Origin: Octopus sinensis
Taxonomy: Eukaryota
Assembly: GCF_006345805.1 (NCBI RefSeq)
Contig: NC_043001.1
Span: 88,474,001 to 88,538,000, forward strand
DNA length: 64,000 nt
Direction of reading: 5' to 3'
The position numbers and the translations under genes were made by a program. Every line of letters begins with the position of its first letter. Position 1 is the first letter of the stretch. Under the pieces are notes generated by a model, which was not told the DNA's origin, searched no databases, and worked only from the letters and a program-made list of their open reading frames with translations. This document shows positions 21,731-37,212 of this stretch, one piece after another.

Positions 21731-22262
21731 GTGGGTGCAGGACGCAAAAATAGTGAAATTATGTTCTGTTCCGCAGCAGATATGTTCATGTGTCTCCCAC
21801 CCACCATCTTGACTGTCTGCCAGCTTGCTTGCTCTCCACCTGCTGGTCACCAGCTTGGCAAGATTCTCAGCCATGGTTCAAATGACACTAAGTTATATCA
21901 GCTGACATAGATTTCTTTCCTTTACCAGAAGGTCATATTTTACCCACAGTTCTGGCAGCAGGGTGGGGATTGGTTTCTTTTTAATTATTCACTTCTTATT
22001 TTTATTTATTTTATTTTACTATTTTGTTTCTTCCTTTTCCTCGAATATTCTTTACCCAATGTGTAAATGAACTGTTATTTCTGTGTGTGAGTATGTAATG
22101 AATCAAGTTTAAACTCTCTATACCTCAGTTATTATTGTGTGTTCATTACAGGCATATTACAGATAAACGTTCAAGCTGAACATCAACCATATCAACCTCA
22201 CTTATCTCAGTGGGTGTGAAAGTGTTATACACAGTTTCTTTTCCCTCTGTTCAAACCATAAT

Positions 22263-22299
<37 letters not shown>

Positions 22300-22397
22300 T
22301 GTGCATGTATGTGTGTCTGTGGTATGATAGAATGAACTAATACCCTATATTATTTAATAACCATTCTGTTCGTTACATATGTGTGTGTGTGTATGTA

Positions 22398-22456
<59 letters not shown>

Positions 22457-22463
<7 letters not shown>

Positions 22464-22990
22464 CACATGTATGTAGATACAGAAAGTGTGTGCACATGCA
22501 TGCAATAATGTGTCTTTCTAATGTCCAATTTCATCATGAGACATGGACTACATATTCACAATACATTTAGAGCCTGAACATTCTATGGACAATTCCCTAG
22601 AAAGATAGGATAATGCTCACACAAATTGTTTGTTGAATTAACACTAGCATCATTGAATGTATGCTATACAGGCATCAACCGAAATAGCTCATGCTGATTC
22701 ACTCTTCCTCATAGGATTATCTGTAGCTATATAATTATATGATGGTCATCACCTGGTTAGATGGTCAAAGGAGCTATTCAAAAATCAGCCAATGACTGTA
22801 TAAATATATATATATAAATAAAGTGTGTGTATGTGTGTTTATGTATGTATACATACATATATGTATACCTATATGTTTGTGTGCATCCAACCCATGCCAG
22901 CATAGAAAATGGACATTAAATGATGATGATATATATATATTATATATATATATATATATATACATCTAAGCATATATGTGTCTGTGTGTG

Positions 22991-23045
<55 letters not shown>

Positions 23046-23508
23046 CACATGTATGTAGATACAGAAAGTGTGTGCACATGCATGCAATAATGTGTCTTTC
23101 TAATGTCCAATTTCATCATGAGACATGGACTACATATTCACAATACATTTAGAGCCTGAACATTCTATGGACAATTCCCTAGAAAGATAGGATAATGCTC
23201 ACACAAATTGTTTGTTGAATTAACACTAGCATCATTGAATGTATGCTATACAGGCATCAACCGAAATAGCTCATGCTGATTCACTCTTCCTCATAGGATT
23301 ATCTGTAGCTATATAATTATATGATGGTCATCACCTGGTTAGATGGTCAAAGGAGCTATTCAAAAATCAGCCAATGACTGTATAAATATATATATATAAA
23401 TAAAGTGTGTGTATGTGTGTTTATGTATGTATACATACATATATGTATACCTATATGTTTGTGTGCATCCAACCCATGCCAGCATAGAAAATGGACATTA
23501 AATGATGA

Positions 23509-23549
<41 letters not shown>

Positions 23550-23590
23550 TAAGCATATATGTGTCTGTGTGTGTATATATATATATATAC
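22457..23590. repeat. 582-bp tandem duplication bounded by (TA)n tracts
   Basis: ATGTAGATACAGAAAG at 22471 and 23053; ORFs at 22774 and 23356 are offset by 582; copies appear identical apart from microsatellite length. Confidence 0.95.
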
Positions 23591-33240: not shown

Positions 33241-33396
33241 CTCTCTGATTGACTAATTGGCTGTGTGTGTGAATAGCATGTATCCTATTTTACTGGGTTT
33301 TGTCAATAGTTCATCTACATTGCTTGCCCTCATATCTTTAACTGTGCTGTCAACTTTAGCAGCTGGTCTCTTTACCAGATCTAAATGGGCTGGACT

Positions 33397-33431
<35 letters not shown>

Positions 33432-34688
33432 ATGCATTCCCTACATTCAATAACCTCTCATTAACATTCACCTCCTCTTCCTTGGATCAATAATGGCACG
33501 TGTACCGCATTTATTTCATATATACTTTTCCCCAAGGATGTCATAATTTGTGATGATACTCTGCCTTGTACTCCAGAACTCCTCACACCTATTTTTCTCA
33601 TTACCGAACAGTGGTTTCACTCTGTGCTATGTATACATGATGTTTGCGCGCGCACACACACATATATATCCATGAACTTTGACCTAGTATTGAAAATAAA
33701 ATAAGCACACACACACACACTTATGTGTTTGTACTAGTGTATTTGCATATATTCTTACACATACATACTCTCTTTTTCTCTCACACACACTCTCTCTCAT
33801 GTAAACATTAGCCTTTCACTTATATCATTCTATGCATACACACATGAATGCACATATATACTGACAATTCTCTACAAAATACACATTCCCAGTCATATAT
33901 CCATCTCCACACAATACAAATTTATAGAAATATAAATAAATAGTAAAGTAGTAAAACAAAGATAGGTTATTTACCACAAATACTTAATTAGAAAAGAATA
34001 AATGAACAGGGGCCAAAAAAGTGAAAAACAATGAAAGAAGTTATTAGAAATCTCTAGTATTTAATAGTTAGGAATTAAATAAAAGGCTTAAAGATTACTG
34101 AGAAAGATCAGATGCGAATACTGTGAGAGAAATGGTTAAAAAATTATTCAAATCAAAATATAAAATTATCAATTTTAGTCAATGTATCATTAGTGAACCA
34201 ACTTGCATGCAAAAACACACACACCCTTATTAGATAGACCTTCCTCTGTTTGTGTGTCTCTGTACCTCTCTCTCTTCTTTCTCTCCATCTCTCCTCCCCC
34301 TCTCCATTTCTCTTTCCCATGCATTCCCCACATTCAGTAACTAAACATTTCTCTCATCCATGTAAGAGGAAGCATGTTTAACTAAATTTAATTAAATATG
34401 TAAAGGAATGACATCCTCCTTAGTTTTCACATATAAATCAAAAAAGGATTGGAGAATTTTCTATTAGGTTCCCTAAATAAACAATATGTAAATAAAGTGT
34501 CACTTAAACTAATTAGATATAATCCCGACTATAAAGATTAGTAGTCCTAAGAGTGGTGATGATGTATTTATGATCAACATTCTTACTTAAACAATTACAT
34601 TTAAGTATTTTATATGAATGTATGTACTATATATAAACTGAAAGTATGGGTGTGTTAGGCACTGGAATGGCTATGATAGACACAATTA

Positions 34689-35065
34689 TGGCTGTATGGT
34701 TGAGAAGCTTGCTCTTCAATCATATGATCTCAAGTTGAGTCTCACTGTGTAACACCTTGGGCAAGTGCCTTCTTCTATAGCCCTGGGCTTCCCAAAGCCT
34801 TGTGAGTGGAGTCCGTAACCAGAAAGCAGATGAAGTCTGCTATCTGTATGTATGTGTGTGTGTGTACCCTTGTCTTGACATTATGTGATGGTTGTAAATG
34901 AGCATCATTTTCATATAAGCGATGTAATTGTTTCCAGGCCTCAGTGAAAATCATGTTTGGTCATAGGAAAACAGGTGGGAGGCTTGTGACAGAACAGGGT
35001 ATCCAGCCATAGAAAAACTGCTTCAACAAAATCCATCTGACCCATGCAAACATAGTAAAAATATG
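34689..35065 (+). mobile_element. tRNA-derived SINE family B
   Basis: ACCTTGGGCAAGTG..TTCT.CTATAGCC...CAAAGCCTTGTGAGTGGA core. Confidence 0.75.
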
Positions 35066-35367
35066 TAAAAATTAACACAGGTATATGTGTTTGTGTGCTT
35101 CATATCTGTAATTTCATGATGTTACAATCATGTTAAACTGTAACTAATAAGAAGGACGGTGTCATCCTAAAATAAGATCTCTTGACTAATTTCTGTTTCA
35201 TACTATATTGAATGACCAATGAAAGACCATGCACTGTCCTAGTTACTTGAAACAGATCAAACAGGTCAGTGACAATAGATAAAAAGACTATGGAAATGTT
35301 CTTTACATAAGTGAGTAATTTCCTCACCAGATTTGTATATATTGATACACATACACATACACGCACG

Positions 35368-35414
<47 letters not shown>

Positions 35415-35451
35415 TTATGTGTATACACATACCTCTATCTATCTACCTATC

Positions 35452-35536
<85 letters not shown>

Positions 35537-37212
35537 CTCACACACACATCATTGTCATCAGTTTATATCCAGTTTCCATGCTGACATATGTTGGACAATT
35601 CATTACAGTTTGAGTCCTTGTATGTGCTCTTTTAGACATGGCTGGACTGGGGACCACACCTCTATTGTTATTGGCATATTGTCTACAACTTTATGCCATT
35701 CCTCACACCAGCCACATTACACAGTGTACTGGATGCATTTTTTTCATGTCACTAGTACTAGCAAGGGTGTTGTGTCCTCATTGAGACTAAATGTTCTCCT
35801 GAACCCTACAATGTTTCATCCACCAACCTTGTTATGGTGTACAGGATGTATTTATTGTGGCATCAGTACTGGAGAGATTGTTATGTCCTGGCCAAGACGA
35901 GTCCTTCCAACCTATTATGTTTCCATTTGTTCACCCACCACTTCATAAAAGGATGCAACTTATCCTTATACCATAATTAATGAGGGTTGCCTTGTGTCTG
36001 GTTCCTCTCTGCTCTGTGTGATCTCCATTTCAAGGGAAAATGAGTTGAAAAGAACAATTGCAGAGAATGGACTAGTGTGAAGTGGAGAGAAGAGGCTGAT
36101 ATTGGTGGAAAAATGAATTGGTAAAACATGATAGATTGTGCTAGAAGAGTAATGAATGGTAATAGGAATGTATACATGGAGAGATAGGCAGCAGTAGCCT
36201 AGAAAAATACGGTTGCTGTATGATTAAGAGAGCTTGATGTTTATCACTTAGAAGCAGCCTGATGGTGAAGGAGTACTAACTAGTCAGCAGTATGGAAGGG
36301 GAAGGTAATTTGAGCTAACAAAGAGAGTACAGGTATTGAGGTGACATGGAAAGAGAATTAGTGAAGACTGTCAGTGGAAAAGTGACATAGAAGAGAGATG
36401 GGCAATGACAATGGTGTGTGCGTTTCAGGAGAGTAAATGAGGTGGAGGTTCATTACACACACGTTCGCTTGCACACACACACACATGTATATATGTATAT
36501 AAGCATGTATATGTACCCATGCATATCATGTATGTGCATATACATGTATGTATATATGTATATAGACTGAATTGGCAATCATAAGAATGTTGCATAAAAT
36601 AGCTTGATATTCATTCCAACTCCCTGTGTTTGAAGTTCAGATCCCTTCCAGGTCAACTTTATCAATCCTGAAAGGATGAAAGGCAAATAAAATACTAGTC
36701 CACTGGGCAGGTGGTGGTGGGGCTGATTAATCTTCTCTTTCTCTCTTTTATCTTTTTTTTTTCCATCTGAAAGAAATTGGCTATGATCAGACATGGGAGA
36801 AGAATGGACTCTGGTAGGTTTAAAAAAGCCCAAGACATACTGTTTTTCTTTACAGTGCCCCTACGGCTCCATCAGAAGCCAACAACTCAAAAGAATGAAA
36901 AAAGTGTGTGTGTATGTGTAAGAGCATACATTCAGATACACCTAAATGCATGTATATGGCCTGTTTCTCAATACACTTGAATAGCCTCATCAATGTCCTC
37001 TGAAGCTGAAAATCTGCCTAGCTAGTGTACAGAATAGTGGTCGGGCAAGCAAAATCCAATCCCTCTCCCCTCCATTTATCATCCAAAGCATAGCTGCAGC
37101 GGAGTTACTGCACTAGTAATGCATGGGGTAGTCAGTCAGTCAGACAGTTGTTGCTATGGTGACATGTGAGCTGCTTTTTGATCAGCAAATCCATTGTTCT
37201 TTCATATTTCAG

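Follow-up and report, generated by a model that had tools for sequence, protein, structure and literature searches.

A mutually exclusive CaMKII exon pair in Octopus sinensis with a predicted donor hairpin and a borderline long-range intronic pairing

A 64,000-nucleotide (nt) stretch of the Octopus sinensis genome (GCF_006345805.1, contig NC_043001.1, positions 88,474,001 to 88,538,000 of the forward strand; hereafter the window, numbered from its first letter) carries two alternative versions, A and B, of a kinase-domain exon of CaMKII. A previous sequence-only reading proposed that six nested complementary segments (segments 1–6), located just downstream of exon A and just upstream of exon B, form an RNA duplex of ~200 nt that clamps the donor of exon A to the branch region of exon B and thereby could prevent A-to-B splicing. 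The explanation favored here, with a confidence slightly short of even, is instead that A and B are an old exclusive exon pair in which choice is biased by a local hairpin on the donor of exon A and is backed by message decay, and that the long-range pairing is at most an accessory bridge. The exons under study are as follows.

21658..21730, + strand: exon A, a 73-nt CaMKII kinase-domain exon bounded by AG and GT that encodes a 24-residue peptide
37213..37285, + strand: exon B, 73 nt, also encoding a 24-residue peptide
46702..46804, + strand: next constitutive exon (PENLLL...QQGWF), read in frame downstream of either A or B

Judged from the sequence and from gene models, exons A and B are real 73-nt mutually exclusive alternatives of CaMKII, and the identification made in the sequence-only reading is upheld: isoform models hold A or B and none holds both. 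The exons are equal in length and phase, retain intact AG/GT splice sites, and are 79% identical in DNA and 71% in protein. The previous CaMKII exon is located 2.6 kb ahead of the window start, and the product of the 46702–46804 exon matches solved CaMKII structures. The exon A peptide is 100% identical to the Octopus bimaculoides RefSeq isoforms P0030, P0044, and P0049, and the A and B peptides are both identical to RefSeq isoforms of O. bimaculoides and O. sinensis; the octopus pair is already present in public isoform models. Among 247 retrieved proteins, a set in which counts are biased by the two queries and depend on annotation, the A peptide occurred in 3, the B peptide was found unchanged in 41, including Octopus and Acanthosepion, and the two occurred together in none. 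A third exon copy was not detected in the 64-kb window or in 10 other loci.

When exons A and B and the next exon were joined in silico, a stop codon arose inside exon B; A or B alone was read in frame. Messages that contain both exons would presumably be removed by nonsense-mediated decay. As double inclusion shifts the frame, a steric role for the duplex is not needed to account for exclusivity. Among human clusters of mutually exclusive exons, 60% have a length that is not divisible by three (PMC5740500).

The donor of exon A is the non-consensus GTGGGT (21731–21736) and is covered by a predicted local structure.

21727..21808, + strand: predicted local hairpin over the exon A donor, −34.7 kcal/mol, overlapping segments 1 and 2

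The 5′ strand of the hairpin starts at the final base of exon A and takes in the first 16 bases of the intron, and the 3′ strand spans 21789–21805. Helix 1 pairs 21730–21737 with 21798–21805 through eight Watson-Crick pairs (GGTGGGTG with CACCCACC) and helix 2 pairs 21740–21746 with 21789–21795 through seven; predicted pair probabilities are about 1.0. The hairpin energy was reached by 2 of 1000 shuffles, and by 2 and 4 of 1000 when the donor was kept. Moreover, the exon A donor is the only one of the 10 donors of the gene with such a hairpin (0/300). In these predictions the hairpin takes up the bases of segments 1 and 2 and would form 15 kb of transcription before the long-range duplex; the donor hairpin is better supported than the 200-nt clamp. 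The hairpin would fold once the first 80 intron bases are made and would hide the donor of A, making B the usual choice unless splicing proteins open the structure. Any A+B messages would be cleared by decay, and at most the middle of the complementarity, comprising the segment 3 region and segment 6, may pair beside the hairpin as an accessory bridge.

The elements of the proposed long-range pairing are listed here.

21784..21887, + strand: 5′ arm of the long-range core, segments 1–5, complementary to 37077..37171
21965..21973, + strand: 5′ strand of segment 6 (GGGGATTGG), pair probability 0.28, with 22 complements in the intron when G-U pairs are permitted
37056..37064, + strand: 3′ strand of segment 6, by complementarity
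37077..37171, + strand: 3′ arm of the long-range core, in the GC-rich unique flank 5′ of exon B
37178..37182, + strand: candidate branch site TTGAT, assigned from sequence, with A37181 at −32 from the acceptor

The complementarity described in the sequence-only reading is present in the letters. All six segment pairs were recovered, nested and with the reported numbers of G-U pairs; the 20-mer of segment 5 (21868–21887 / 37077–37096) contains 14 Watson-Crick pairs, with A.C accounting for five of its six mismatches; and the local CCAGAA/TTCTGG hairpin exists. The arms are unique, as claimed: each is single copy and has no second copy in the 2.7-Gb genome in a search that skips common words, and a transposon origin of the arms was rejected on the same ground. 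The core duplex comprises 69 pairs (56 Watson-Crick and 13 G-U) in 15 helices of which the longest has 11 pairs, and its arms lie 15.2 kb apart in a 15.5-kb A–B intron with long repeats. Segments 1 and 3 have 2 and 6 complements, respectively, in the 64 kb, and segments 2, 4, and 6 have 37, 44, and 22 possible partners in the A–B intron. The RBFOX motif TGCATG occurs at 37120–37125 inside the 3′ arm. A search of Rfam over 21000–38000 produced 60 weak matches, none at the gathering score and none on either arm. Only microsatellites were found among the longest pairs listed in an exact-seed repeat search, and pairing of arm B with exon B itself gave no signal (86 of 100 shuffles). The donor of A and the presumed branch A are 15.45 kb apart in sequence. 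If the duplex formed, this distance would shrink to 53 + 9 = 62 unpaired nt for the candidate branch site, close to the 50–60 nt of the sequence-only reading but longer, so that even the formed duplex leaves the distance above the <50–60 nt at which steric interference was envisaged.

Support for the duplex differed between the whole arms and the core. The duplex of 21731–21990 with 37030–37212, the flanks for which the clamp was proposed, had an energy of −92.5 kcal/mol compared to −83.8 ± 6.5 for dinucleotide shuffles, 49 of 500 of which reached it. The co-folding gain of the whole arms was −7.9 against −9.1 ± 3.9 in shuffles (reached by 89 of 150; 76 of 133 with block shuffles), and the best 45-nt and 70-nt duplexes were ordinary (41 of 149 and 26 of 126 shuffles). 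The core, 21780–21890 with 37074–37175, had an energy of −66.5 kcal/mol. On hand-tuned windows 2 of 500 shuffles did as well, and in windows trimmed to the segments of the sequence-only reading the energy was reached by 10, 2, and 5 of 500. A window search combined with whole-arm shuffles gave 0 of 340, though whole-arm shuffling dilutes the GC-rich core. Block shuffles reached the core energy in 10 of 138 (40-nt blocks) and 22 of 149 (20-nt blocks) cases, with 3 of 47 in a repeat, and p therefore was about 0.07–0.15 once local composition was kept. Thus, the claim of pairing above chance is borderline for a core of about 110 nt and fails for the 200 nt. Arm B was only the fourth-listed partner of arm A, and no outer-flank pair stood out as a docking site among the 110 donor and acceptor flank pairs of the gene, the deeper intron having been scanned with two cores only.

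Co-folding likewise disfavored the clamp. Ensemble pair probabilities were <0.005 for segments 1, 2, 4, and 5, 0.16 for segment 3, which favors a shifted register on an AGTC repeat, and 0.28 for segment 6; accordingly, the best co-fold retained segments 3 and 6 between the arms and dropped the other four. Forcing the core gave −126.2 kcal/mol, whereas separate arms reached −129.7 and the optimal fold −140.1, which places the forced core 14 kcal/mol above the best fold and 3.5 worse than the unpaired arms, and this order was unchanged at 10, 15, and 25°C. With whole-arm tests null and local folding preferred in these models, a stable 200-nt clamp of the proposed design probably does not form. 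Between the two arms, (TG)n near the 5′ end of the A–B intron (22266–22300) and (CA)n near its 3′ end (35365–35410) have a possible duplex of −60 kcal/mol which, if it formed, could bring the arms closer; such repeats are common in the genome.

Conservation of the flanks was assessed in sequencing runs of other organisms. Nearly all sampled 31-mers of arm B were present in organisms A–D, and 10 of 14 sampled from 37030–37212 were present in six runs of a near relative, organism E. A DNA contig of organism E spans 21622–22254 with 15 differences, 13 of which are listed: none in exon A, four in 21731–21990, and nine in the next 264 nt. Base-by-base comparison with organism E covers arm A only; its constraint gave p 0.26 for the whole arm and 0.015–0.03 for a 213-nt part chosen post hoc, and simulated p values for arm B were 0.04–0.20. 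Both flanks thus look modestly conserved, with weak constraint. The single change of organism E in the 5′ arm 21784–21887 is G21792A, which also breaks a pair of segment 1 (core −62.0) if arm B is unchanged there. In RNA from another sample of organism E, two reads that probably derive from one unspliced molecule carry G at 21792 where the DNA has A. This G could stem either from editing at an A.C mismatch or from allelic variation; over 150 nt, the one informative RNA molecule departs from the reference at no more than one position.

The pair extends well beyond octopus. The order A-type then B-type also is found in gene models of Owenia (P0007) and Nucella (P0128), and Haliotis carries both exon types. 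Among 41 metagenome loci, 10 have two exon copies and yield eight distinct introns of 185–2408 nt once L011 and L012 are left out as near-copies of L010. The named protein nearest to exon B of L010 is from the bryozoan Watersipora, and a pan-bilaterian origin, for which L010, L018, and L024 had been considered as echinoderms, was dropped on this evidence. As judged from sequence comparison, the exon pair is old and recurs across lophotrochozoans, namely in molluscs, an annelid, and bryozoan-like animals. In many read-through products with the ESVNHCHQNGVV peptide the exon is fused to the previous one and hence a separate exon is not universal. No alignment to the window was obtained for the distant A–B introns. 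In seven of the eight, end-to-end pairing did not clearly exceed that of block shuffles, the best being L008 (2 of 47) and L021 (5 of 45), and as the pair persists where seven introns lack clear pairing, the clamp is not needed to keep it. The 185-nt intron of a bryozoan-like CaMKII (L024, 2424–2608) is predicted to form a single rod (z −3.4, 0 of 200 shuffles; halves 0 of 100) in which the donor region is paired close to the presumed branch site, with the geometry envisaged in the sequence-only reading; among 54 other windows of the locus, one has a stronger fold. The introns of L010 and L018, closer relatives of L024, lack such a fold. A consensus fold of the L003, L007, and L028 introns was set aside, as the alignment was poor and no convincing long-range helix emerged.

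Other features of these introns were noted. The GTGGGT donor follows exon A in the window and in L003, L007, L008, and L028, and follows exon B in L003, L007, L008, and L009. Repeated TGACGTCA-like palindromes lie 45–110 nt past exon A in the related introns of L003, L007, and L028 and form a short hairpin; they could be an RNA stem or a CRE-like DNA site. A TGTTTTATGTYG-like motif 50–120 nt before exon B is common to L003, L007, L008, and L028, and the window has TGTTGCTATGGTG (37149–37161), within segments 2–3, at the same distance as the motif of L007. In L008, TGACT at +80 from the A donor can pair with a GTCAGTCA tract 5′ of B (5713–5725 / 6270–6282), and the window has a like TGACT/GTCAGTCA pairing (21810–21821 / 37127–37138); the resemblance may be chance. 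L007 contains a second duplicated CaMKII exon (18071–18154 and 18694–18780; QRERVA...NARRKLK, regulatory segment).

Several observations weigh against the combination of donor hairpin and decay that is favored here. The hairpin window was picked after the fold had been seen, the duplex of the donor alone is weaker (79 of 2000 and 30 of 500 shuffles), and the folding of the 351-nt region taken together is unremarkable (12 of 100). G21792A in organism E breaks a G-C pair of the hairpin and raises its energy from −34.7 to −29.2 kcal/mol. None of the eight distant exon A donors has a comparable hairpin, and the hairpin was rejected as an ancient feature on that count. No spliced reads over exon A were present in three RNA or RNA-like runs, among the runs consulted X13 having no reads on the region and X23 only repeat-derived reads. 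A search across sequencing runs listed none recorded as RNA, an outcome that says nothing about expression. Joined reads were reported for only 22% of the frame-shifting human clusters (PMC5740500), which indicates that an active mechanism usually exists besides decay. On the side of the long-range pairing, arm A is the best partner of arm B among 3175 windows (next best −64.6), and the A–B flank pair ranks first among 110 donor and acceptor flank pairs of the gene (260 nt after donors, 183 nt before acceptors), both raw and as a residual (−13.2, standard deviation 4.2). This top rank is inflated because the two flanks are the most GC-rich of 21, at 45% compared to 23–35% for the rest and 42% for one other.

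These rankings, the GC-richness of the two flanks, and the scarcity of complements to segments 1 and 3 would fit a model in which the hairpin and the core are the two states of a switch. In one state the hairpin would hide A and B would be used; in the other, segments 1 and 2 of the core would strip the 3′ strand of the hairpin, freeing the donor of A and setting a helix 9 nt from the branch site of B, such that A is included and B is left out. The equilibrium between the states could respond to A-to-I editing or to temperature. In keeping with this scheme, the hairpin engages the donor through the very bases of segments 1 and 2 (21784–21807), and organism E DNA has A at 21792, opposite C in the hairpin (also in the duplex if arm B is unchanged there), where two RNA reads, probably of one molecule, have G. 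A two-state switch is nevertheless unlikely: the duplex lies 14 kcal/mol higher in energy than the hairpin, block-shuffle p is 0.07–0.15, the arms are 15.2 kb apart, and another individual's allele may account for the G at 21792. A more specific version, in which a 25-nt element buries the A donor by local pairing, frees it and crowds the B branch site by pairing 15 kb off, and contains an A.C that is ADAR-edited in a relative and hard-wired as G here, is quite improbable.

Alternatively, the flanks may be conserved GC-rich clusters of protein-binding sites, which are common beside alternative exons, without any structural role, with duplex and hairpin arising by chance from composition while decay and splicing factors act. 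The shrinking significance of the duplex as local composition is kept favors this explanation, as do TGCATG at −93 from B and in the first codons of B and a TGTT..TATG(T/G)TG-like motif that the window shares with L003, L007, L008, and L028 at 50–120 nt before B. Structures predicted at Rdl exon 3 proved dispensable (PMC13762713). However, the hairpin stands out against shuffles that keep the donor and against block shuffles (2 and 4 of 1000), and conservation of the exonic TGCATG was rejected on a count of 15 of 25 distinct B exons. An absence of structure is a minority possibility, if one to be taken seriously. The static clamp, in which the whole duplex loops out 15 kb and holds the A donor too near to the B branch point, draws on the presence and nesting of the segments, on a distance of 62 nt that is near the 50–60 nt limits quoted in PMC5740500 and PMC13762713, and on the L024 intron, a single rod with the same geometry in a distant animal. 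Yet 62 nt is above both quoted limits, pairing at full length does not exceed that of shuffles, and pair probabilities are close to zero for most segments. L024 is one intron of eight, with L010 and L018 lacking the fold and another window of its locus folding more strongly, and a clamp alone would not choose between the exons. It appears very unlikely.

The pair can be set beside known systems. In mouse, the significance of the mutually exclusive Camk2d exons 6A/6B is unknown (PMC12060085), and CAMK2D is listed among tandem duplicated exon events (PMC9741552); as in octopus, the vertebrate 6A/6B pair is a duplicated kinase-domain exon that ends in HRDLK and is used singly, and the available parts of both sources describe no RNA structure for it. 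Fish gene models P0001, P0003, P0004, P0008, and P0009 have two copies at the same protein position. The residues differ, with ESVNHCH / EAVLHCH in vertebrates and EGVNHCH / M..ESVNYCH in lophotrochozoans, and the two duplications may therefore be independent. The first exon copy of L021 (5944–6016) reads EAVLHCHQ, resembling the second vertebrate copy.

In FGFR2, paired elements sit in the intron between two exclusive exons and act together with RBFOX sites. Muh (2002) reportedly dealt with an FGFR stem that controls exons IIIb/IIIc. Yue (2013) is said to have combined steric hindrance with RNA secondary structure at Dscam exon 17, the shared idea being a stem that cuts the donor-to-branch distance below the steric limit. 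Unlike that case, the octopus intron is 15.5 kb, the unpaired distance would be 62 nt, and the structure is a prediction only. Standard mechanisms for mutually exclusive exons include the steric limit, decay, and competing structures (PMC6071210, PMC5740500). The IAS2(ISE-2)–ISAR stem of FGFR2/FGFR1 is similar in that complementary intronic elements accompany an exclusive pair, IIIb/IIIc, that is backed by decay (PMC12772994); its conservation extends from sea urchin to human and it has been examined by experiment, whereas the octopus pairing is long, irregular, borderline, and not found in seven of eight distant relatives. Competing pairings that share one element, as proposed here, also occur at ATE1 exons 7a/7b over a span of 30 kb (PMC7797038) and in the docking–selector pairs of srp/Dscam (PMC4691838), both likewise tested by experiment, but there an exon is looped out or the selectors are duplicated, whereas both octopus arms are inside the intervening intron and would loop out no exon. 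By analogy the type of mechanism has precedent in FGFR2 IAS2–ISAR and, by title, in Dscam exon 17. Neither RNA structure at CaMKII exons nor a paper on the mollusc pair was found in the literature searched, mostly outside subscription journals.

Elsewhere in the region, 28846–28996 contains a near-perfect hairpin of about 65 pairs (z −11.8) with many diverged genome copies on both strands; it is a foldback repeat resembling a miniature inverted-repeat transposable element and is predicted to be a far better double-stranded RNA than the proposed duplex. A tandem duplication with a 582-nt period at 22417–23580, with copies 100% identical over 300 nt, is a recent event or an assembly artefact. 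Intron-poor CaMKII-like copies with stops on small contigs (G000 C8597, 467011–489811; C9510, 60137–60793) are probably processed pseudogenes.

Overall, the 200-nt duplex was overstated, and on these predictions the shorter core and the competing donor hairpin remain a testable lead. The solid part of the finding is modest: a pair of CaMKII catalytic-domain exons in molluscs, an annelid, and bryozoan-like animals that parallels vertebrate 6A/6B, the function of which is open (PMC12060085). If true, the two-state switch would offer a compact and testable example in which a pairing over 15 kb lifts the masking of a splice site, in a memory-related kinase of animals that edit RNA very actively. 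A switch element of the kind outlined above would further tie RNA editing in cephalopods to the selection of a kinase exon kept in two copies since the lophotrochozoan ancestor.

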